A DNA stretch of 13,663 nucleotides from the NCBI GenBank assembly GCA_014730235.1, contig WJIO01000370.1:1-13663 (forward strand), given 5' to 3'. Positions 1-8,245 of the stretch are shown one piece after another. Every line of letters starts with the position of its first letter. Position 1 is the stretch's first letter. The notes beneath the pieces are model-generated. The model did no database searches. It was given only the letters and a program-made list of their open reading frames with translations, and had not been told where the DNA came from. Source of the stretch: Candidatus Poribacteria bacterium. Its GTDB lineage: Bacteria; Poribacteria; DTPJ01; WJIO01. The position numbers were made by a program, and so were the translations under genes.

Positions 1-405
1 ATCAATAAGCTGTTGTGCATAGCCAATAGGTATTTTATACTTCATTCGAGTATGGGTCCAGGCCATAACTACAGGATCATCAATTGACGGTGTTTCTGAT
101 AATGAGCGTTTTTTCCATTCGTTTAAACCTGATTGCAAGTCACCCTCAGGTATATCCACCAGATCATCACTGATGCGGCAAAAAGAATATAAAGCCCTTG
201 CCGCCCGGCATTTTTCTCCCGGAAGTAAACTTGATGCCACATAAAAAGTGCGGCTGTGATGTTTTGTAAGTTTTCGGCAGTGTTCATAAGCCTCTTCCAG
301 AGCTAATCTGTCAACATCAATGAAGTTGAATTCAACATGCTCTTCAAAGGCCTTATAAGCCTTCTCCAGAAGCTTTTCTTCCCAGGAACATGTATATAGT
401 GTCAT
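1..405 (-). CDS. crtB: Phytoene synthase (squalene/phytoene synthase family), N-terminal 135 aa only. The gene continues beyond the window start. Its start ATG (405..403) overlaps the crtI stop (ATGA).
   Basis: Manual translation of the reverse strand gives MTLYTCSWEEKLLEKAYKAFEEHVEFNFIDVDRLALEEAYEHCRKLTKHHSRTFYVASSLLPGEKCRAARALYSFCRISDDLVDIPEG... This carries the hallmark SQS/PSY motifs (HSRTFY, LLPxxxRxAxxALYxFCRxxDDxVD). No in-frame stop occurs to position 1. The ORF is open-ended, so it is absent from the supplied track. Confidence 0.85.
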   Translation of the reverse strand, partial: MTLYTCSWEEKLLEKAYKAFEEHVEFNFIDVDRLALEEAYEHCRKLTKHHSRTFYVASSLLPGEKCRAARALYSFCRISDDLVDIPEGDLQSGLNEWKKRSLSETPSIDDPVVMAWTHTRMKYKIPIGYAQQLID

Positions 406-1934
406 CTCTCACTTTCTATTATTTTACCCGGAATGGATACAGATTTTTCAGGAACGCGCTGTTCCTTAAGAATCCGTTCCACAACAAGACGGGCTGATAT
501 TAATACCATAGGAAGTCCCCCGCCTGGGTGCGTGCTGGCTCCAACAAAGTAGAGGTTTTTATAACGGTCATGACGGTTATGAGGTCGTAAATATCCTACC
601 TGAAATAGGTTATGGCTGAGACCAAAGGCCGAACCTTTAGCCAGATTAAGATAATCTCTGTAATCTGTCGGTTCAATTATCTCTTCAAAAGCTATATACT
701 TTTCCAGATTTTTAATACCAATAGATTCCAGTTTTGCAAAGACTTTATTTCTGGCTTTATCCCGGATTGCATCCCAATCCTGGGGGGTTTCTTCGTTAAT
801 ATGACCTACTGGAACCAAGACCAGAAGGCTGTCACCATCCGGTGGAGCGCAGGAGTCATCGGTACGGGATGGGGAACATACATAAAACGAAGGATCATCA
901 GGCAAAGTCAAATCCCGGAAGATTTTATCAAAGGATTCCCGATAATTATTGTCGGCAAGAAATACGTTGTGATGTTGAAGCTGTTCCGGTCTTGTCCCCT
1001 TTATACCCCAATAAAACATTATGGCCGACGATGAATACTTTTTCCGATACAATCTTTTTGCTTTGTTTTTATCCGGCAGAAGTTCCGAATATACATAAGG
1101 TAAGTCTGCATTAGCTATAATGGCATCAGATTCAACTTTTTCACCGTTTTCCAGAGTTACACCTGTTGCCTTTGAACCTTCCACGTTGATTTTTGCCACC
1201 GATGAGTCATAATGAAACTTCACACCCAAGCCCTGGGCAATATCCGTCAGGGTTTCAACAACTTCATACATACCGCCCCGGGGATACCAAACACCCTGAA
1301 CCGCTTCGGTATATTGTAGAAGGGAATATGTGGCCATAGCATCATAAGGGCTAAGACCCAAATACATGTTTTGAAAGGAAAAGCCAGCCCGAAGGCGGGA
1401 GTCTTTGAAAAACTTTGATGTATTGTTGTAATGTTTCGCCAGTGCCTTTATGCGAATCACCAGTGGGAAGTTTGATGGACTCAGGTATTCCAGCCATGAC
1501 CTGAAGTTTCGACCTACAAAATGCTTTAATGACAGGTGATAATTACGGTAACCTTCTTCCGTAAATCTAAGGAAAGCCTCAAAAGAACCCGGTTCTATAG
1601 ACTCCAACTGGTCGAACATGCTTTTAAGATCACCAGTTATATTCAGCTTTGTTCCATCATGAAAATGCACCTTGTATGTAGGATCAATTCGGATTAAATC
1701 AAGATGGTCTTCCATATTTTCACCCAGGGATTCGTAAGTTTCAGCAAATATTTCTGGCATCAAAAAAAGAGTTGGTCCTGTGTCAAAGCGATGACCATCC
1801 CTCTCAATAATTCCAGTTCGTCCTCCAGGAATAGAATTTTTCTCTAAAATGGTAACTCTACATCCCAAACGAGCTAAACGTGCAGCAGTTGAAAGACCAC
1901 CAATCCCAGCGCCTATTACAATTGCTGTATTCAA
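402..1934 (-). CDS. crtI: Phytoene desaturase (CrtI-type FAD-dependent carotenoid desaturase), 510 aa. Uses a TTG start preceded by an AAGGAG SD.
   Basis: N-terminal Rossmann FAD motif IVIGAGIGGLSTAARLARLG. C-terminal CrtI-family signature YFVGASTHPGGGLPMVLISARLVVERI. Size typical of CrtI. The first codon is RC(1932..1934)=TTG. An upstream in-frame stop is close by, and the SD AAGGAG lies 8 nt upstream. The gene is coupled to crtB by an ATGA overlap. CrtD or CrtN-type desaturases cannot be excluded without a search. Confidence 0.85.
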   Translation of the reverse strand: MNTAIVIGAGIGGLSTAARLARLGCRVTILEKNSIPGGRTGIIERDGHRFDTGPTLFLMPEIFAETYESLGENMEDHLDLIRIDPTYKVHFHDGTKLNITGDLKSMFDQLESIEPGSFEAFLRFTEEGYRNYHLSLKHFVGRNFRSWLEYLSPSNFPLVIRIKALAKHYNNTSKFFKDSRLRAGFSFQNMYLGLSPYDAMATYSLLQYTEAVQGVWYPRGGMYEVVETLTDIAQGLGVKFHYDSSVAKINVEGSKATGVTLENGEKVESDAIIANADLPYVYSELLPDKNKAKRLYRKKYSSSAIMFYWGIKGTRPEQLQHHNVFLADNNYRESFDKIFRDLTLPDDPSFYVCSPSRTDDSCAPPDGDSLLVLVPVGHINEETPQDWDAIRDKARNKVFAKLESIGIKNLEKYIAFEEIIEPTDYRDYLNLAKGSAFGLSHNLFQVGYLRPHNRHDRYKNLYFVGASTHPGGGLPMVLISARLVVERILKEQRVPEKSVSIPGKIIESER

Positions 1935-2001
1935 TATAAATACTCCTTATATATGTTTCATAAGCAATTTCCAATTATATAGATGAGATTTTTTCTTGAT
2001 T

Positions 2002-2172
2002 GTAATCGTTAAAAAATGAAAAATGTGTTTAGAAAATACCTTTATAATCATGGTAAATTACAAAATTTGTCATTCCTGCGAAAGCAGGAATCCAGAAAAA
2101 ACTATCATGGGAGACTGGATTCCTGCTCTCGTAGAAATGACAACTAAATTATATCCATTTTTAAACGATTAC
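2002..2172 (+). mobile_element. Complete MITE-like miniature inverted-repeat element (repeat copy A), 171 bp. It has 14-bp terminal inverted repeats (gtaatcgttaaaaa / tttttaaacgattac) and is flanked by a perfect 6-bp direct repeat TTGATT (1996..2001 and 2173..2178).
   Basis: The TIRs and TSD are read directly from the sequence. Internally there is a GAAA-tetraloop hairpin at 2072..2091 (attcctgc-gaaa-gcaggaat) and a second degenerate hairpin half at 2113..2142. It is near-identical to the copies at 4263..4354 (inverted) and 7881..8010. Confidence 0.65.
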
Positions 2173-2211
2173 TTGATTAGACAATGTTTTTTACATTTCC
2201 ACACTCAAGTC

Positions 2212-3126
2212 TTAAAAACAAATTGCCAGGATAAAACTTACCGAAACACCCAGATTAATTATGAGAGTCTTTGCACATATATTTTCCAACGCTTTATGTT
2301 CTTTATAGTGCTTTTTAAATACCTGAATTATCGTTATCAAAGAAAGTATAAATACTGGCAGAAAAAAGATTAACGCTTTTAAAGGTATACCTGCCCAGAT
2401 AGCAATTAAATATGAAATCCAGATCCCTATACTGAATATAATATAAATCTTACTCATCTTTGACTTACCAAAGCGCACCACCAGGTTTTGCTTTCCTGTC
2501 CTTTTGTCGGCCAGATAATCCGGGAATTCATTAATTAATATCACATTAAATATAGAAAAGATAATAGGTAGTGATGTCCAGTGTATAATATTAGGAAATT
2601 TACCTGTCTGTAAATAGTAAGACGCAGCTACTGTAAGCCATCCATAACAAAAACCTATCCATATTTCTCCAAGTCCTTTATAAGCCCATTGCACAGGTTT
2701 TGCTGAATAAAACAACCCTCCCAAAATCCCGATTATCCCCAGAGGCAAAGTAAATGCGCCGGTATCATAATAAAAATGAAGTATAAATCCTATAACCAGC
2801 GCCGCAGAAACTGATACCAGAGAAGCGATCAAAGCATGATGTCGGGGTATCAATCCTGATTGTATTACCTGGCTGCCTCCTGTAAAGCGATTTCTACCCA
2901 GCTCTGATGAGAGGTTATCCGTTTCATAGTCGTAATATTCTCCTGAATAATAGGTTGCCGAAAGAATCAGAGCAACACACAGAGTTCCCCAGAATAAAAC
3001 TGTCCAGTCAATAACCCCTGTATTATACCAGGCCAGAACATTACCCAGTATAAATGGAAAAATTCCTACTGTGTGAAAAGGCAGTCTGGACAAAGTTATC
3101 CAGGCTTTCAGCTTTTTTATATTCAT
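2212..3126 (-). CDS. UbiA/MenA-superfamily membrane prenyltransferase, 304 aa. Possible lycopene-elongase-like or other isoprenoid prenyltransferase.
   Basis: Polytopic hydrophobic protein. The second Asp-rich motif NEFPDYLADKRTGKQNLVVRFG matches UbiA/MenA NxxxDxxxDxxxGKxTLAVRLG. The first motif region is GEYYDYETD (D/ExxDxxxD-like). The start ATG overlaps the idi-2 stop (ATGA). Confidence 0.8.
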   Translation of the reverse strand: MNIKKLKAWITLSRLPFHTVGIFPFILGNVLAWYNTGVIDWTVLFWGTLCVALILSATYYSGEYYDYETDNLSSELGRNRFTGGSQVIQSGLIPRHHALIASLVSVSAALVIGFILHFYYDTGAFTLPLGIIGILGGLFYSAKPVQWAYKGLGEIWIGFCYGWLTVAASYYLQTGKFPNIIHWTSLPIIFSIFNVILINEFPDYLADKRTGKQNLVVRFGKSKMSKIYIIFSIGIWISYLIAIWAGIPLKALIFFLPVFILSLITIIQVFKKHYKEHKALENICAKTLIINLGVSVSFILAICF

Positions 3127-4181
3127 TTTTTCACCAGATATTTTGTATTTCCCAGTTCCTTGAGGTTAGCTGAACCTGTGCAAAACATAGCAATCTTCAA
3201 TTCTTCAATTATTCTGTTCAGAACGTTTTCCACCAATAAAGGAGATTCCAGGGCTGGAGATAAAAGTGGTAGAGCAATACCTATCACCGAAGCTCCTAAA
3301 GCTATAGCCTTAGCTGCATCAACGCCGTTTCTTATACCTCCTGATGCTATAACAGGTATATCAGGAACAGCGGATTTAACCATATTTAAGCTTTCCGCCG
3401 TTGGTATACCCCAGTCGGAAAAGGTATCCCCTATAGTTCTTTGACAGTCGCTCTTTGCCCGGTAGGATTCGATCATAGCCCAGGATGTACCGCCCGCGCC
3501 GCCGATGTCAATACAGTCAACACCAGCGTCTACAAGTCTGGATGCAACCTCTTTTGATATCCCGCAACCTACCTCTTTGACAATAATAGGCATCTCTATC
3601 TTTCGCCGTAGCTTCTTAATATTTTCCAGCAATCCCCTGAAGTTGGTATTTCCTTCGTATTGTATGGCTTCCTGAAGGGGATTTAGATGGAGGGCCAAAG
3701 CATCAGCACCTATCATGGATATAGCATCGAGACAATTTTCATAATCAAAGCCATTATTAAGCTGAATAGCCCCAATATTTGCTATCAACAAAGCATCAGG
3801 CACTGTATGTCTTACCTGAAACGTATAGGCTAAAGACGGTTGTTCCAGTGATATTCTCTGGGAACCAACCATCATGCCTACCCGCAGTTTCTGGGCAGCT
3901 ATGGCCAGGTTCTCATTGATTTGAAAGCTCAGCTCCGTTCCGCCGGTCATAGATTCAATGATAACAGGATAATTCAGGACTTTGTCGAATAAATTAAGGG
4001 AAAGATCAATATCGCTCATATTAATATCCGGCAAAGCCTGGTGGATAAAGCTATAATTTTCAAAACCCGTTGATTTGTTCTTAAATCCAACATCCTCATT
4101 AAGGCATATACGGATATGATCGGCTTTTCTGTCCTGAGTCATCCTGTTGAATTTTGTTTCTCGGTCTTCTGAATTCCGCAT
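3123..4181 (-). CDS. fni: Isopentenyl-diphosphate delta-isomerase type 2 (FMN-dependent IDI-2), 352 aa.
   Basis: Diagnostic IDI-2 motifs are present: RKADHI, SMTGG, VGSQR, IVKEVGCGIS, DIGGAGGTSWAMIE and ASGGIRNGVDAAKAIALGA (TIM-barrel FMN enzyme). The SD GGAG lies upstream of the ATG. Confidence 0.9.
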   Translation of the reverse strand: MRNSEDRETKFNRMTQDRKADHIRICLNEDVGFKNKSTGFENYSFIHQALPDINMSDIDLSLNLFDKVLNYPVIIESMTGGTELSFQINENLAIAAQKLRVGMMVGSQRISLEQPSLAYTFQVRHTVPDALLIANIGAIQLNNGFDYENCLDAISMIGADALALHLNPLQEAIQYEGNTNFRGLLENIKKLRRKIEMPIIVKEVGCGISKEVASRLVDAGVDCIDIGGAGGTSWAMIESYRAKSDCQRTIGDTFSDWGIPTAESLNMVKSAVPDIPVIASGGIRNGVDAAKAIALGASVIGIALPLLSPALESPLLVENVLNRIIEELKIAMFCTGSANLKELGNTKYLVKK

Positions 4182-4262
4182 AAAATATACTCCGAGTTTT
4201 GACTTACATTTTTGGCTCTTCCGAATTGAGTGTAGAAATAATTTAAAAATTTTCTAAGCATA

Positions 4263-4354
4263 TCATTCCTGCTTTCGCAGGAATGACAAATTTTGTAATT
4301 TACCATCATTATAAAGGTATTTTCTAAACACATTTTCCATTTTTTAACGATTAC
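4263..4354 (-). repeat. Truncated copy B of the MITE-like repeat, in inverted orientation relative to copy A (TIR end at 4341..4354).
   Basis: The reverse complement of 4263..4354 matches 2002..2092 of copy A with only 2 mismatches over about 90 nt. This includes the shared aaaaatg duplication and the hairpin tcattcctgc-tttc-gcaggaatga (4263..4286). The distal TIR and TSD are absent. Confidence 0.6.
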
Positions 4355-4502: not shown

Positions 4503-5303
4503 CTATTCAAATGTACATATAGCACCAGGGCGTTTAATTCTCAAAACTACTGTTTCAAACACCCGAAAGGGATGATCCATATCCTCAGCCCCGAGATAAG
4601 CAGTAGTTAGATCCTCTCCCACAACCAGGTCCATATTTTGTTTACCTGTAGCCACAATTATGGCCTGATCACCTTCTATTGCTGGTGATTGAAAAACACC
4701 TTCAGTCATCAATTCCTTGACCATAGCTATTTCAAGAACTCCGGTTCCTTCATACACTCGGTGCATCTTGGCATATAAAGAGGGGCTTACCACCATTGCA
4801 TAAGGACCATAAAAACCACCCGACATTAGCTTTTCCGTACCAGCTACCACATTCTGAAAAGCATTGCCGGTAACCTGCCAGTCCTTAACCTCTGCGGTTG
4901 TACGACCTTCGGCGTTTAACAGTCCTTCATAACCTTCCATACCATTGAAAACCATATTGTCTTCTTGCATAGCGCAATAAGCAGCCGCTCCGGCAGCAGG
5001 CCCTAGTTCCAGCGGAATACCATATACTTTCGCCGATTCAATATCCCGCCAGTGAAGTTTAAAATCTTTTTGTATCATGGGTATGGTGATATTTTCGCGC
5101 TTCTTAACAGCTATTTCACCTTCTTTAAAACCACCCATGGAAGGTTTTGGGACCACAGTAGCACCAGCACCCAAAGGCCCGGTAATGCCTATAAATCTGC
5201 GTCCAACCAGTCGCCTTCGTGCAGATTCCACCACAAGTTTATCTATTTTTTCCCAGTCTTCGCTGCTTAAAGGAGCATCATCTCTTGCAAGATAATCAGC
5301 CAT
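4503..5303 (-). CDS. Family-1 encapsulin nanocompartment shell protein (HK97-fold, linocin M18-like), 266 aa.
   Basis: It aligns by eye along its length to the Thermotoga maritima encapsulin. [37 protein letters not shown] matches [50 protein letters not shown] matches DGIEGPYTLVINT. The C-terminal [23 protein letters not shown] matches [23 protein letters not shown]. A strong SD GGAGGG is present. The start lies 1 nt after the upstream EncFtn stop. Confidence 0.9.
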   Translation of the reverse strand: [266 protein letters not shown]

Positions 5304-5304
5304 T

Positions 5305-5712
5305 TTATTCTCCCTCCGTTTTCTTTTCCTCTATAAGGCTTCCTACAGTCGAATCTGACTTCTCTTCTTCAGGTTCTGTGTTAGATTTTAATGATTCAAT
5401 CATTTCTTCAACCTCTTCATAACCTTCGTCATAGAATTTCTGTTCATCCGAGTCCAGTTCATGAAGCAGTCGGAGAAATTCACCGGCATGAACTCTCTCT
5501 TCGTCTGCAATATCTACAAGAACTTCTATAGCCAATTTGTTGTCCGTTGACTCCGCCAGTTGAATATAAAGCTGAACTGCTTCATATTCTGCGGAAATCA
5601 TAAATCTTATCGCCCTGATCAGTTCCTCATGAGTTAGTTTTCTGTCGTTTTTAAGCCCTGCGAATGCTGACCCAAAATCTGGCATTATAATACCTCCTTG
5701 AAACTCTTGCAT
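5305..5712 (-). CDS. Encapsulated ferritin-like protein (EncFtn/Flp) cargo, 135 aa, with an acidic C-terminal linker and a GSL-type encapsulin targeting peptide.
   Basis: Ferritin-like ExxH region AEYEAVQLYIQLAESTDNKLAIEVLVDIADEERVHAGEFLRLLHEL (EncFtn-type di-iron ligands). The C-terminal tail EPEEEKSDSTVGSLIEEKKTEGE contains a TVGSLI motif like known cargo-loading peptides. The gene sits immediately upstream of the encapsulin shell gene. The SD AGGAGG lies 7 nt upstream. Confidence 0.8.
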   Translation of the reverse strand: MQEFQGGIIMPDFGSAFAGLKNDRKLTHEELIRAIRFMISAEYEAVQLYIQLAESTDNKLAIEVLVDIADEERVHAGEFLRLLHELDSDEQKFYDEGYEEVEEMIESLKSNTEPEEEKSDSTVGSLIEEKKTEGE

Positions 5713-5726
5713 CTTTATAAAAATGC

Positions 5727-7301
5727 TTAATTCAAACGTTTTGTCATATTGACTATTCCCTGGCGCAGTTCATCTGGTTCAGGCATCTGATCTGTACGCA
5801 TTAATTCAGCAATAGCCGGCATATGAGCAATTTTACCTGCACCTGAGGCAGCCATAACTTTATCATTTTTAATGTAATAAGCCACAAAGTTACGCATTGA
5901 TGGTTTACCATGAAAAATTATTTCATCCCAATCTTTTGCATAACCTACATATCTTAGATTGACTCCCAGTTGGTTAGTCCAGAAAAATGGAATACTCCGG
6001 TATTCCGTCTCTTTACCAGCCATATTAAAGCCAGCCACCCGTCCAAGCTGTTCCGCCAGACGCCAATGCTCAATTCGAATTCTTTCCCCTGATCGCCAAT
6101 CTATAAAGCTTACTATATCCCCGGCTGCGTATATATCTTCAGTAACCTGAAAATGCTTATCTACTGTAACACTTCTATCTGGATTTAATTCCATATTTTT
6201 TAGAAAATCTGTAGCAGGACGAACCCCTACACCTGTTACCACAAAATCTGATTCAAGAGTTTCTCCGTTGTCCAGGACAACTTTCTCTACTGATTTATTA
6301 CCTTCAAATCGAGCCACTTTACGGCCAAGTTTAAATACTGTGCCGCTGTTTTCATGTATTTCTTTATACATACTCCCCACTTCAGCACCCAAAATTCTCT
6401 GGTAAGGTAATTCTTCCGGAGCTACAATAGTGATATAAAGTCCTTTTTCAGCTAAATTCGCTGAAATTTCCATACCGATAAAACTCGCCCCGATTATTAC
6501 CAGCTTAGCACCTTTTTGAGCAAGACTTCTGATTTTCAGAGAATTATCCGGATTTCTTAGGGTAATAACATTATCCAGACCTGCACCCGGTACATCAACT
6601 TCTCTTGGAATACTGCCCGGAGCCAAAAGAACCTTATCATATTTGAGATATTTTCCATTGTCAAGCATCAGCTTTTTGCTGTGCGCATCTACTCCAGTTA
6701 CATTATGACCTGTCAAAACTTCAATACCGTATTCCGAATAAAATTCTTCTGAACGCAGCATTTCCGGTTCTTGGTCTTCGCTTTTCAAAAAGCCTTTGCT
6801 TAAACCTGTTCTATCATAAGGTAAACGGCTTTCTTTTGTAAGCATAAGGATTTTTCCCTCAAATCCTCCTTGTCGCATAGCCTCTGCTGCTGTGGCTCCA
6901 GCCGCACCTGTTCCCACAATAATAAAGGTCTGTTTATCAGCGTCTGGATTATATTTTGCCATATCAGGATGACGAGTTTCCGAAGCATCTTCTTCCACAA
7001 TTACAATAACGTTATCATCTTCAATCCGCACATCAAATCGAGCCAGGGAATCCAGGGAAGGTGGTTCTTTAAGATCTCCCGTTACAACATCAAAACAGGC
7101 CTGATGCCATGGACAGCGTATGTGATGTTGGTGCAATACTCCCTCTTCCAACGGCGCGCCAAAGTGAGGGCATGTCGATCCAAGAGCATAAAAATTATTG
7201 TTATCCCGAACTAATAATACCTCTACTTCACCTACTAAAAATTCCTTCATTTCGCCATTTTCTAAATCTGTAGTTTTTGCTACAATCTTTTCAATCTTCA
7301 T
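5727..7301 (-). CDS. Rieske [2Fe-2S] domain fused to an FAD/NAD(P)-dependent pyridine-nucleotide-disulfide (ferredoxin-reductase/AIF-like) oxidoreductase, 524 aa.
   Basis: Rieske motif CPHFGAPLEEGVLHQHHIRCPWH (CxH-x16-CxxH) at residues 44-66. FAD GxGxxG motif FIIVGTGAAGATAAEA. NAD-binding motif LVIIGASFIGMEISANL. A conserved YAAGDIV and a ferredoxin-reductase-like C-terminal domain are present. SD AAGGAGGG. The stop lies 14 nt before the EncFtn start. Confidence 0.85.
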   Translation of the reverse strand: MKIEKIVAKTTDLENGEMKEFLVGEVEVLLVRDNNNFYALGSTCPHFGAPLEEGVLHQHHIRCPWHQACFDVVTGDLKEPPSLDSLARFDVRIEDDNVIVIVEEDASETRHPDMAKYNPDADKQTFIIVGTGAAGATAAEAMRQGGFEGKILMLTKESRLPYDRTGLSKGFLKSEDQEPEMLRSEEFYSEYGIEVLTGHNVTGVDAHSKKLMLDNGKYLKYDKVLLAPGSIPREVDVPGAGLDNVITLRNPDNSLKIRSLAQKGAKLVIIGASFIGMEISANLAEKGLYITIVAPEELPYQRILGAEVGSMYKEIHENSGTVFKLGRKVARFEGNKSVEKVVLDNGETLESDFVVTGVGVRPATDFLKNMELNPDRSVTVDKHFQVTEDIYAAGDIVSFIDWRSGERIRIEHWRLAEQLGRVAGFNMAGKETEYRSIPFFWTNQLGVNLRYVGYAKDWDEIIFHGKPSMRNFVAYYIKNDKVMAASGAGKIAHMPAIAELMRTDQMPEPDELRQGIVNMTKRLN

Positions 7302-7356: not shown

Positions 7357-7394
7357 TTCCCCTTCCCCAAAGGGGGATCAAGGGGATTTTTATT
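7357..7394 (+). terminator. GC-rich stem-loop (cccctt-cccc-aaa-gggg-gatc-aagggg) followed by ATTTTTATT. It is an intrinsic-terminator-like structure on the + strand, in the 5' leader region of the minus-strand Rieske operon.
   Basis: Read directly from the sequence. The nested stems are 6 bp and 4 bp, followed by a T-tract. No + strand gene ends here, so the function is uncertain. It could be a leader hairpin, an sRNA terminator, or an insulator against antisense transcription. Confidence 0.3.
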
Positions 7395-7475: not shown

Positions 7476-7788
7476 ACAAACCACATTAAATCAGTTTTAT
7501 TTTATACGACCTATATATGCAAATGATATACCAAAAACTAAAAATACCCGTAAAAACAGGTTATAATTAATTTTGTAGGATTTTAGCACTTATATGTCTC
7601 TAATTATTTGAGTTATAATTTAGCAAATTTTGCTGTCAATATTTACCAAACAATTAATCAAAAGTGATTCTCCCGGATTTAGTGAAGTATTAACAGACCT
7701 GAGAATTCTAAAAATCTCTAAAACCAATTTTTATAAGAATTCAGCATAAAGAAACAGATGAAAAGGCTCAAAAAATATAGTTCCATGT

Positions 7789-7815
7789 CATTTCTACGAA
7801 GGCAGTAATGACAGC
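7789..7815 (+). repeat. Degenerate solo copy of the repeat-family hairpin (gtcatttctac-gaag-gcagtaatgac).
   Basis: It resembles the hairpin units of copies A, B and C (gtcattcctgc-gaaR-gcaggaatgac) with two stem mismatches. Confidence 0.35.
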
Positions 7816-7880: not shown

Positions 7881-8010
7881 GTAATCGTTAAAAATGTGTT
7901 TAGAAAATACCTTTATAATGATGGTAAATTACAAAACTTGTCATTCCTGCGAAGGCAGGAATCCAGTAGATCCGCATAAAGACTGGATTTTTGCCTTCGC
8001 AGGAATGACA
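7881..8010 (+). repeat. Copy C of the MITE-like repeat, in the same orientation as copy A. It has the 5' TIR but lacks the 3' TIR. It contains an almost perfect 28-bp-arm palindrome (7939..7966 / 7982..8009) around a 15-nt loop.
   Basis: 7881..7965 matches copy A 2002..2093 except for a 7-nt indel (aaaaatg) and 3 substitutions. The arms gtcattcctgcgaaggcaggaatccagt and actggatttttgccttcgcaggaatgac are inverted complements with 2 mismatches. The loop sequence differs completely from copy A. Confidence 0.6.
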
Positions 8011-8060
8011 GCATAAAGAGGTTTCTTATCTTTACCACACCGAACTCGGAAGAACCAAAT
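8011..8060 (+). repeat. Direct repeat DR1 (about 48 nt). It is paired with DR2 at 8174..8222, with about 6 mismatches and 160 nt spacing.
   Basis: DR1 reads ataaagaGgtttcttatctttacCacacCgaacTcggaagaAccaAat and DR2 reads ataaagaAgtttcttatctttacTacacTgaacCcggaagaGccaTaaat. Both are read directly from the sequence. Confidence 0.5.
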
Positions 8061-8086
8061 TTATGATTGGATTTATTAACTTGCCG

Positions 8087-8130: not shown

Positions 8131-8173
8131 CCTTCATAAATAACTCACAAAAGTTAAGACAATAAATGGCTAA

Positions 8174-8222
8174 TAAAGAAGTTTCTTATCTTTACTACAC
8201 TGAACCCGGAAGAGCCATAAAT
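8174..8222 (+). repeat. Direct repeat DR2, the partner of DR1. It ends 9 nt before the GGGAGG SD of the A2M gene.
   Basis: See DR1. It overlaps the immediate 5' UTR of the A2M gene. Confidence 0.5.
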
Positions 8223-8245
8223 AATATTCAGGGAGGTACTTAAGA

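Follow-up and report, generated by a model that had tools for sequence, protein, structure and literature searches.

A repeated non-coding element with inverted ends and a core of NTS-like hairpins upstream of crtI in a Candidatus Poribacteria contig

Introduction

Two known kinds of repeat DNA, miniature inverted-repeat transposable elements (MITEs) and the NTS/SRM hairpins with their Ssn nucleases (described in 2025), form the layers of element A, a 171-bp insert between a UbiA-family prenyltransferase gene and the phytoene desaturase gene crtI. Element A is located in a complete 13,663-bp contig from a Candidatus Poribacteria metagenome-assembled genome (MAG). This contig, at its full length, is the window referred to below.

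The Neisseria Transformation Sequence (NTS), CGTCATTCCCGCGMAVGCGGGAATCYRG, is a longer form of the dRS3 repeat (PMC11893778, Nat Commun 2025). The small GIY-YIG protein SsnA binds and cuts NTS only as single-stranded DNA (ssDNA), and the cut is positioned just a few nucleotides upstream of the hairpin. GTC before the palindrome and C after it are reported as the most important positions for cutting and binding. That paper further records related motifs (SRMs) close to ssn homologues across many bacteria, Wolbachia and Rickettsia among them. The NTS-ssnA-NTS layout is described there as resembling an insertion sequence (IS), an analogy with repetitive extragenic palindromic sequences (REPs) is drawn, and a phage recombinase is known to target the dRS3 repeats of Neisseria (PMC11893778).

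The insert upstream of crtI is a repeated, non-coding element of mobile type, with inverted ends and a 6-bp target duplication. Its best explanation, to which a probability of about 60% is assigned, is a MITE-like shell with an Ssn-type hairpin doublet as its core, the hairpins serving as hot spots of deletion or exchange from which two partial copies in the same window, B and C, arose.

Anatomy of Element A

Element A occupies positions 2002..2172 (plus strand) and is complete, consisting of a shell and a hairpin core. It is bracketed by the direct repeats TTGATT at 1996..2001 and 2173..2178, both read from the sequence and regarded as a target-site duplication (TSD). The left terminal inverted repeat (TIR), GTAATCGTTAAAAAATG, lies at 2002..2018 (plus), and the same terminus opens copies B and C as well as an element in the metagenomic locus L147. 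The right TIR, which forms the other end of the element (CATTTTTAAACGATTAC, reverse complement GTAATCGTTTAAAAATG), lies at 2156..2172 (minus). The left-arm interior (2019..2068, plus) is lineage-specific, 98% identical in copy B and 96% in copy C, and includes the TATAAT hexamer pointed out in the initial annotation together with a minus-strand, -10-like GATTAT. It is followed by hairpin unit 1, GTCATTCCTGCGAAAGCAGGAATCCAG (2069..2095, plus), which is NTS/SRM-like and intact, an A-rich loop of 19 nt (2096..2114), and hairpin unit 2, GTCATTTCTACGAGAGCAGGAATCCAG (2115..2141, minus), which is inverted and degenerate, with three changes. The interior of the short right arm (2142..2155, plus) can be aligned with the right arm of L147 (TAAAT.A.ATCC...TTTT...CGATTAC).

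A repeat search gave TIRs of 17 nt with one mismatch (94% complementary), located 137 nt apart. The TIRs of the initial annotation are therefore real, while their length, given there as 14 bp, was underestimated. The flanking bases T2001 and T2173 are non-complementary, so that the inverted repeat stops exactly at the start of the direct repeat.

The role of chance was assessed in 300 dinucleotide-shuffled windows, counting 14-nt inverted pairs that had no more than one mismatch and a separation of 40-500 nt. Pairs of that quality occurred 1.8 times per shuffled window; consequently, the TIR by itself is weak evidence. An inverted pair directly flanked by a perfect 6-mer direct repeat was found in 0 of the 300 shuffles, and the per-site chance of a 6-mer repeat in the AT-rich UbiA-crtI spacer is 7e-4. 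On the shuffle result and on the terminus common to the copies, a chance palindrome was rejected, and the earlier description of a 171-bp insertion with TIRs and a perfect TTGATT duplication stands.

Only one open reading frame (ORF) crosses element A (2023..2373, 116 aa). It reads through repeat DNA, and a search of 5.8 billion proteins with the translated element gave no relative, in agreement with the earlier statement that the insert carries nothing but a spurious frame. A blastn search of the 171 bp against plasmids and phages gave no match. The element folds very stably, reaching -65 kcal/mol (z = -10.7) as minus-strand RNA, the sense of the operon, and -32.7 kcal/mol (z = -7.8) as ssDNA. 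The features of a MITE present in element A are the TIRs, the flanking TSD, and a small size without coding capacity.

Hairpin Core

Within the 77-nt core of element A lies a hairpin doublet (2069..2141) that had been overlooked in the initial annotation. Unit 1 agrees with the NTS consensus at 25 of 28 positions and has the frame GTCATTCC-stem-loop-stem-GGAATCCAG. The two internal differences constitute one compensatory change of a C:G pair to T:A, and GTC before the palindrome and C after it are kept. As in SRMs, a hairpin is thus combined with orienting non-palindromic flanks (GTC, C). Judged by its sequence, the core can be classed as a putative doublet of NTS/dRS3-like, Ssn-nuclease-related hairpins. 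Five hairpin units of this frame are present in the window, all of them intergenic, versus 0.01 expected.

The likeness to NTS, dRS3, and SRM repeats extends to the intergenic position, the repetition, the formation of hairpins, and the arrangement in inverted pairs. The differences are the T:A stem pair in place of C:G, the hosts, which are mostly uncultured phyla (Poribacteria in the case of the window unit), and the enclosure of the window doublet by a shell with its own TIRs and TSD.

In a search of the whole window, no Rfam family was found at or above its gathering score. Below that threshold, WsnRNA46 (RF02625, Wolbachia small RNA 46) scored 36.7 bits versus a gathering score of 65.3, and FtrB (RF02748, Francisella small RNA B) scored 21.1 bits versus 66. 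The resemblance is due to the same class of hairpin in both models: the WsnRNA46 consensus has the frame GUCAU...GGAUCCAG-loop-CUGGAUUCC...GAUGAC, and the FtrB consensus has it as CAUUCCCGCGUAGGCGGGAAUC. The scores are too low for element A to be a member of either family, and the likeness reflects a shared repeat, not a shared gene.

Partial Copies in the Window

The left terminus GTAATCGTTAAAAA recurs at 4354 (minus) and 7881 (plus), in both cases with the inner hairpin adjoining. Copy B (4262..4354, minus) consists of the left terminus, the left arm, and one collapsed hairpin, and is located upstream of idi in sense orientation; its 90 nt from 4354 to 4265 are 98% identical to the first 90 nt of element A. 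Copy C (7881..8010, plus) consists of the left terminus, the left arm minus 8 nt, and a hairpin doublet whose loop differs from that of element A. It is 96% identical to element A over 7881..7966 and lies in the divergent spacer between the genes for a Rieske/FAD oxidoreductase and an alpha-2-macroglobulin.

In A, B, and C, the similarity begins at the same base, the G of GTAATCG, and the DNA outside it is unrelated, which indicates a defined end. On the inner side, the homology stops inside or at the edge of hairpin unit 1. After the break, copy C continues with the different loop and then a second hairpin, while in copy B the two hairpins are merged into one perfect palindrome, TCATTCCTGCGAAAGCAGGAATGA, presumably the product of a deletion between the direct repeats GCAGGAAT common to both units. 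The right arm and right TIR are missing from both copies. Element A is therefore the sole complete unit of the three, and B and C are probably one-ended derivatives broken at the hairpin. Because they share the left end only, these copies do not establish a family of intact 171-bp units.

The lone intact unit implied by the initial annotation gives way to three copies of the left part (90-130 nt, 96-98% identical) in 13.6 kb. Counted within the window, the element is indeed repeated, but just one unit is full-length, whereas MITEs are expected in many full-length copies. A 22-mer of the left arm, GTTTAGAAAATACCTTTATAAT, had no match in the genome-contig or metagenome-contig collections.

A second repeat family, designated D3, follows the hairpins of B and C (4256 to 4208 and 8013-8068, respectively) and has a solo copy at 8173-8228. 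Its consensus is approximately ATAAAGARGTTTCTTATCTTTACYACACYGAACYCGGAAGARCCAWA, with identities of 82% and 73%. Two D3 copies stop 18-27 nt short of a start codon, one ahead of the alpha-2-macroglobulin gene and the other ahead of idi; D3 could be a module of a 5'-untranslated region or promoter, or a further kind of mobile DNA. One more hairpin of the element A type, TGTCATTTCTACGAAGGCAGTAATGACA, is degenerate and stands alone at 7786..7813, 70 nt upstream of copy C, with no adjoining arm.

Distribution of the Doublet and Its Link to GIY-YIG Genes

The doublet was searched for in species-representative genomes with a pattern made up of the unit, 4-30 nt, and CTGGATT. A doublet with the identical 27-mer unit was found in more than 117 genome stretches from over ten phyla. 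A 23-mer of the unit is also present in 15 viral-contig stretches, mostly as solitary intergenic hairpins. The hosts and doublet counts that follow refer to the matches listed. According to their labels, the host MAGs belong to Nitrospirota, Nitrospinota, Thermodesulfobacteriota, Planctomycetota (with a Brocadia MAG among them), Patescibacteria, and Gracilibacteria, as well as Dehalococcoidia, Marinimicrobia, Aegiribacteria, Firestonebacteria, Parashewanella, and a Methanoperedens MAG. The identical bacterial-type doublet in the archaeal-labelled locus L040 (Candidatus Methanoperedens MAG) and in the loci L056 and L063 of the candidate phyla radiation (Gracilibacteria, Patescibacteria) could reflect either horizontal spread or binning contamination.

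The frame GTCATTCC...GGAATCCAG / CTGGATTCC...GGAATGAC stays constant through 116 doublets. Unit 2 varies in its core, but this core is self-complementary in 109 of the 116, so that bases covary inside a constant frame; in only 2 of the 116 does it form the reverse complement of the core of unit 1. What is conserved is thus a pair of separate hairpins, not one long hairpin. The window copies A and C, being near-perfect long hairpins, are atypical in this respect. The loops of doublets elsewhere measure 4-30 nt, the range permitted by the pattern, and contain 43% A. No match to the window arms, the TIRs, or D3 was found in ~1 Mb of fetched doublet loci, and 98 non-redundant doublets gave no direct repeat of at least 4 nt in their flanks. 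Since doublets elsewhere lack both duplications and these arms, the TSD belongs to the shell and not to the hairpins.

All ORFs of the fetched loci were screened for GIY-YIG proteins by local phmmer with two GIY-YIG queries, a screen that in itself serves as a lead only. It returned three ORFs, and Pfam confirms all three as GIY-YIG (PF01541). Two of them, of 96 aa, are found in one Thermodesulfobacteriota MAG chromosome, OZ245366.1 (loci L033, with the gene at 5306-5593, and L078), where the gene is flanked by the identical 27-nt unit in both loci and lies within the doublet: ...CGTCATTCCTGCGAAAGCAGGAATCCAG-TATTATTTAACCCG-ATG...TGA-GTAGGGGTTTCGCCAGTTGAATA-CTGGATTCCGTGTCAGGCACGGAATGAC. Gene-less doublets around this cassette have the loop TATTGGTTAACCAGTTGAATA, which equals the two junctions joined; the doublet thus relates to the cassette as a MITE relates to an IS. 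A search with the L033 protein gave no NCBIfam or PDB match.

Dense head-to-tail arrays of doublets with a period of ~115-140 nt are present in the same chromosome (L033 4600-6200, L078 1100-2400, and L031), and OZ245366.1 would be a good model genome for the cassette and its gene-less derivatives. In several loci (L026, L044, L062, L067, L099, L101, L103, L104, and L107), the loop of the second unit contains extra nested hairpins, as in the L067 example CTGGATTCCGTGTCAAG-CCCCGTTAGA...TCTAAGCGGGG-CAAGCACGGAATGAC. The inner palindrome of L067 resembles a palindrome flanking the L084 GIY-YIG gene (3968-4297), one arm differing by a 2-base inversion. Such nesting suggests that hairpin loops are insertion targets.

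Homologues of the Shell

Metagenome contigs were scanned for GTAATCGTT followed, after a gap of 40-70 nt, by GTCATTCCTGCG. Twelve stretches were obtained, of which L147 and probably L140, L143, and L145 are meaningful, the rest being coding sequences or hairpins with a chance GTAATCGTT. L147 (metagenome contig Ga0180435_10154441) contains, from 1863 to 1700, a 164-nt homologue of the element A shell, with the ends GTAATCGTTAAAAAT and, as reverse complement, GTAATCGCAAAAAAT. Its left arm measures 66 nt, versus 67 nt before GTCATT in element A, its hairpin unit is found at the same place, and its right arm can be aligned with that of element A. The left-arm interior is only weakly similar (z = 2.8). 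The conservation of GTAATCG termini over a drifting interior favours recognition of the ends by an enzyme.

A hairpin-bearing element of ~190 nt is present in L140 (minus) and in L143/L145. The homology sets in precisely at GTAATCGTTTAGT, the 10 nt that also terminate element A on the right, and the surrounding contexts are unrelated. The far end in L143, ACGATTAC, yields an 8-nt inverted repeat. Scans of viral contigs, both for the terminus with a hairpin and for a TIR pair, gave only one chance match, in a coding region (L150).

L147 also carries, at 381-1598 (plus), an IS110-family transposase gene (PF01548, PF02371), apparently inside a hairpin unit (CTGGATTCCTGCCTACGCAG, then the IS, then AGGAATGACA), an arrangement that recalls the targeting of dRS3 by a phage recombinase (PMC11893778). 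As a mobiliser of the shell, IS110 was rejected, because the gene is inserted in the hairpin unit and is not bounded by GTAATCG ends. A separate family in Nitrospirae MAGs (L039 745, L079 5517, L126 6312, L127 4240 minus, and L105 657 minus) has the doublet within TIRs of ~21 nt, TACTAAGRAGTTCATTAGTAA..., and is flanked by TA on both sides, which is the signature of IS630/mariner-type MITEs.

Gene Context and Relatives

On the minus strand, the genes are arranged in the order Rieske/FAD oxidoreductase (5727..7301), rubrerythrin-like protein (5305..5712), encapsulin (4503..5303), the type-2 isopentenyl diphosphate isomerase gene idi (3123..4181), UbiA-family prenyltransferase (2212..3126), crtI (402..1934, with a TTG start), and phytoene synthase (crtB), of which only the beginning is present. 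The plus strand carries the large alpha-2-macroglobulin gene, from ~8246 onward. Element A is placed in the 277-bp spacer between UbiA, its upstream neighbour, and crtI, its downstream neighbour: the crtI start lies 62 bp from the left TTGATT, and the UbiA end lies 33 bp past the right one. These coordinates agree with the earlier placement between the idi-prenyltransferase genes and crtI-crtB, 62 bp from crtI.

MBD3184333.1 (Candidatus Poribacteria bacterium) matches the window CrtI at 100% identity, and the figure drops to 70% for the next relative. The ORF list gives CrtI 510 aa from the TTG start, versus 511 aa in MBD3184333.1; this difference of one codon at the start has no effect on the element A finding. 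In three JGI contigs at 70% CrtI identity, the order is geranylgeranyl diphosphate synthase, idi, UbiA, crtI, crtB, and the UbiA-crtI gap is 28 bp, with no element. The idi-UbiA-crtI-crtB operon was therefore compact before the insert entered it. Other relatives have the Rieske/FAD oxidoreductase gene directly upstream of crtI, at 39-70 bp, and several lack idi-UbiA at this place; in L005, an aldo-keto reductase gene is found between the oxidoreductase gene and crtI. Hairpins of this frame number 0 in 61 kb of the relatives' loci, versus five in the 13.6-kb contig. The absence of both element and hairpins from relatives indicates an insertion, in a lineage colonised by these repeats. The relatives are too distant to display an empty site with a single TTGATT. 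Copy B, at the encapsulin-idi junction, coincides with a synteny breakpoint relative to them.

In the segment 4503-7301 (minus), genes for an encapsulin, a rubrerythrin/ferritin-like cargo, and the Rieske/FAD oxidoreductase immediately precede the isoprenoid/carotenoid genes. A palindrome-like stretch of G/C runs (7361-7392, CCCCTTCCCCAAAGGGGGATCAAGGGG and then T's) lies in the divergent spacer that precedes the oxidoreductase gene. G/C-run repeats also adjoin the hairpin doublet of L068.

Transcription across the Insert

Promoter and terminator scans of A, B, and C remained at chance level. A promoter-like site, ATGACA-18-GATTAT, runs from 2073 to 2044 (minus) inside element A and faces crtI; it is a consensus match only and the sole such match inside the element, and two promoter-like matches were found versus 2.4 expected in shuffles. 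In copy C, this site is directed at the Rieske/FAD oxidoreductase gene, some distance away, and in copy B at the 3' end of the encapsulin gene, in antisense. These orientations give no suggestion of selection for promoter function. The proposal in the initial annotation that the insert supplies or modifies the crtI promoter is not borne out, since the hexamers are no commoner than in shuffles and TATAAT and TTGTCA follow each other on the plus strand in an order that does not make a promoter.

A scan of 1850-2300 gave no terminator-like site, and the one terminator-like match, in copy B, is on a strand without an upstream gene. With co-directional genes and no terminator-like site, read-through is the simplest expectation, and element A is probably transcribed within the idi-UbiA-crtI-crtB message. 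On the same grounds, the earlier suggestion that the insert split an ancestral operon gains no support. The expression of crtI is explicable without element A. REP and Correia elements are precedents for hairpin effects in messenger RNA (mRNA); by analogy with them, the stem-loop of element A could be cleaved in the mRNA or could slow the polymerase.

Origin of Element A

The preferred explanation combines two layers. The outer one would be a MITE-like shell with the termini GTAATCGTT(A/T)AAAA, a left arm of 66 nt, and a right arm of ~30 nt. It would have been inserted into the UbiA-crtI spacer by a transposase of cut-and-paste type acting in trans, most plausibly a DDE-type enzyme, and a 6-bp staggered cut would have duplicated TTGATT. 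The junction before insertion would have read ...CATTGTCTAATCAAGAAAAAATC..., with a single AATCAA. The inner layer would consist of two inverted NTS/dRS3/SRM hairpins, ssDNA targets that small GIY-YIG Ssn nucleases may bind and cut in this organism as well, and the doublets would be the gene-less miniature form of a hairpin-ssn-hairpin cassette. Being prone to recombination, the hairpins may have been the points at which the right parts of B and C were replaced or deleted. Once transcribed, the element is predicted to form a very stable stem-loop that may modulate processing or read-through. The MITE interpretation of the initial annotation is retained for a repeated, non-coding insertion with TIRs and TSD, and revised for its core, which is an NTS-like doublet and not anonymous filling.

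Several observations weigh against this explanation. The published degenerate SRM pattern has 0 matches in the window. This is due to the exclusion of T:A at the sixth stem pair, and the unit is for this reason called NTS-like and not a proven member of the class. No small GIY-YIG ORF is present among the window ORFs, nor is any spacer ORF long enough, in this contig, the only one read. The window also contains no transposase and no IS with GTAATCG ends, and the sole TIR-like pair in ~1.08 Mb of fetched loci is that of L147. Both TIRs and the TSD are present only in copy A, B and C being one-ended. The flanks of L147 (atatat versus aaaaat, 4/6) form no clean TSD, and the hairpin, found at the same position in A and L147, may belong to the family itself and not be a passenger, so that the two layers are less sharply separated. 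Furthermore, 26 of 109 doublets in other genomes lie inside larger lineage-specific inverted repeats, mostly without duplications, versus 1 of 109 in the control; about 16% of doublets are enclosed by such repeats that lack a TSD. In view of such recurrent palindromic shells, an inverted-repeat shell alone is no proof of a transposase.

The main alternative, which is unlikely, is that the whole 171-bp unit was moved via its hairpins by an Ssn-type GIY-YIG nuclease, or another enzyme acting on ssDNA hairpins, and not by a DDE transposase. The outer repeat would then represent just the foot of a larger hairpin, or a palindrome already in place that took the doublet into its loop, and TTGATT would be a by-product or a coincidence. 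Besides the frequent enclosure of doublets in larger inverted repeats, this would account for a left arm that is always joined to unit 1 and for homology breakpoints that all fall at the hairpin. It is also consistent with the common nesting of hairpins in the loops of others in the fetched loci, with the GIY-YIG gene within the doublet loop, and with the description of the NTS-ssnA-NTS layout as IS-like in PMC11893778 itself. However, it leaves the perfect 6-bp duplication unexplained, given the 98 doublets without direct repeats of 4 nt or more. The GTAATCG termini, kept in A and L147 while the arms drift, point to recognition of ends 66 nt from the hairpin, whereas the cut made by SsnA falls within a few nucleotides of its hairpin, on the upstream side (PMC11893778).

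A bolder reading is more doubtful still. Here, hairpin-ssn-hairpin cassettes would be autonomous mobile elements, with doublets as their miniatures, that have reached bacteria, some archaea, and phage-like contigs and favour other palindromes as insertion sites, and the GTAATCGTT-ended shell (Poribacteria, L147, L140/L143) would be a co-evolved carrier. Ends and hairpin would both be needed, and the unit would possibly be moved by a GIY-YIG nuclease with a 6-bp staggered cut.

A composite transposon (2002..4354), with A and B as inverted ends that brought idi and UbiA to crtI, or else an invertible cassette, is very improbable. The geometry is suggestive: A (2002-2091) and B (4265-4354) form inverted 90-nt repeats of 98% identity, their GTAATCG termini point outward, and they exactly bracket the idi + UbiA segment (2212..4181, minus), a layout that could allow inversion of a 2.2-kb segment. 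Moreover, B marks a synteny breakpoint, and several relatives have no idi-UbiA upstream of crtI. The composite was nevertheless rejected, because the outer flanks differ (TTGATT versus TCAGAA) and share no duplication, because A owns a perfect duplication of which one copy would lie inside the supposed composite, and because L001-L003 have idi-UbiA-crtI adjacent without repeats, so that this adjacency predates A.

Finally, element A might descend not from mobile DNA but from an old, structured module that regulates the carotenoid operon (attenuator, small RNA, or promoter module). The very stable folding, the sub-threshold resemblance to WsnRNA46 (36.7 bits) and FtrB (21.1 bits), and the promoter-like site facing crtI might have suggested such an origin, but it has next to no credibility and is refuted by the absence of the element from the orthologous spacer of relatives and by the recurrence of the left part upstream of unrelated genes in both orientations relative to its neighbours, all the more as no Rfam gathering score is reached, the resemblance stems from the same hairpin class in those families, and the promoter and terminator matches are at chance.

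Significance and Comparison with Known Systems

Four aspects are new. A shell with TIRs and TSD is conserved together with the hairpin in two organisms. The T:A variant of the hairpin is common and is missed by the published pattern. The hairpin is now recorded in Poribacteria, and identical doublets occur in many uncultured phyla, a Methanoperedens MAG, and phage-like contigs. OZ245366.1 provides a clear case of a GIY-YIG gene inside the doublet loop. The cassette, together with its clean gene-less deletion derivatives, offers direct sequence support for IS-like cassettes with MITE-like offspring, an idea that is raised, and not shown, in PMC11893778. For the locus itself, the annotation is corrected to selfish repeat DNA in a carotenoid/isoprenoid operon in place of a native regulator. 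One sister copy lies at a synteny breakpoint and the other in a divergent promoter region, so that the repeats mark sites of rearrangement in this genome.

Three known systems can be compared with element A. Correia elements of Neisseria (CREE/NEMIS) are likewise non-coding, 100-200 bp long, and provided with TIRs and a target duplication. They sit between co-transcribed genes, fold into long hairpins in the mRNA, and share their genome with hairpins of dRS3/NTS type. Element A differs in its duplication, which is the 6-bp TTGATT and not TA, probably in its termini, GTAATCG..., and in its internal NTS hairpins, which Correia elements are not known to carry. No parent IS is known for either. 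The Nitrospirae family (L039, L079, L126, L127) is closer to the Correia pattern, being flanked by TA, with TIRs of ~21 nt and the doublet in the middle of the element.

REPINs (REP doublets) resemble the doublet, by analogy only, in that the propagated unit is an inverted pair of short palindromes with a short spacer, is linked to a single small nuclease/transposase gene flanked by palindromes, and lacks a target duplication. However, the RAYT enzyme of REPINs is a Y1 HUH (IS200/IS605-like) transposase, while the enzyme of the doublet is a GIY-YIG nuclease, and REP sequences are lineage-specific, whereas the hairpin frame is conserved across phyla. The eight large proteins of the window belong to Pfam families other than RAYT and the remaining ORFs are short, no search having been aimed at RAYT.

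In Neisseria intergenic mosaic elements (NIMEs), modules are joined at hairpins of dRS3 type and shuffled between loci, and copies B and C, which consist of the arm, the hairpin, and then D3, with breakpoints at the hairpin, appear to follow the same pattern. The locus described here differs from NIMEs in that three loci are visible, the module sequence is unrelated, and the left module has a defined, transposon-like terminus.

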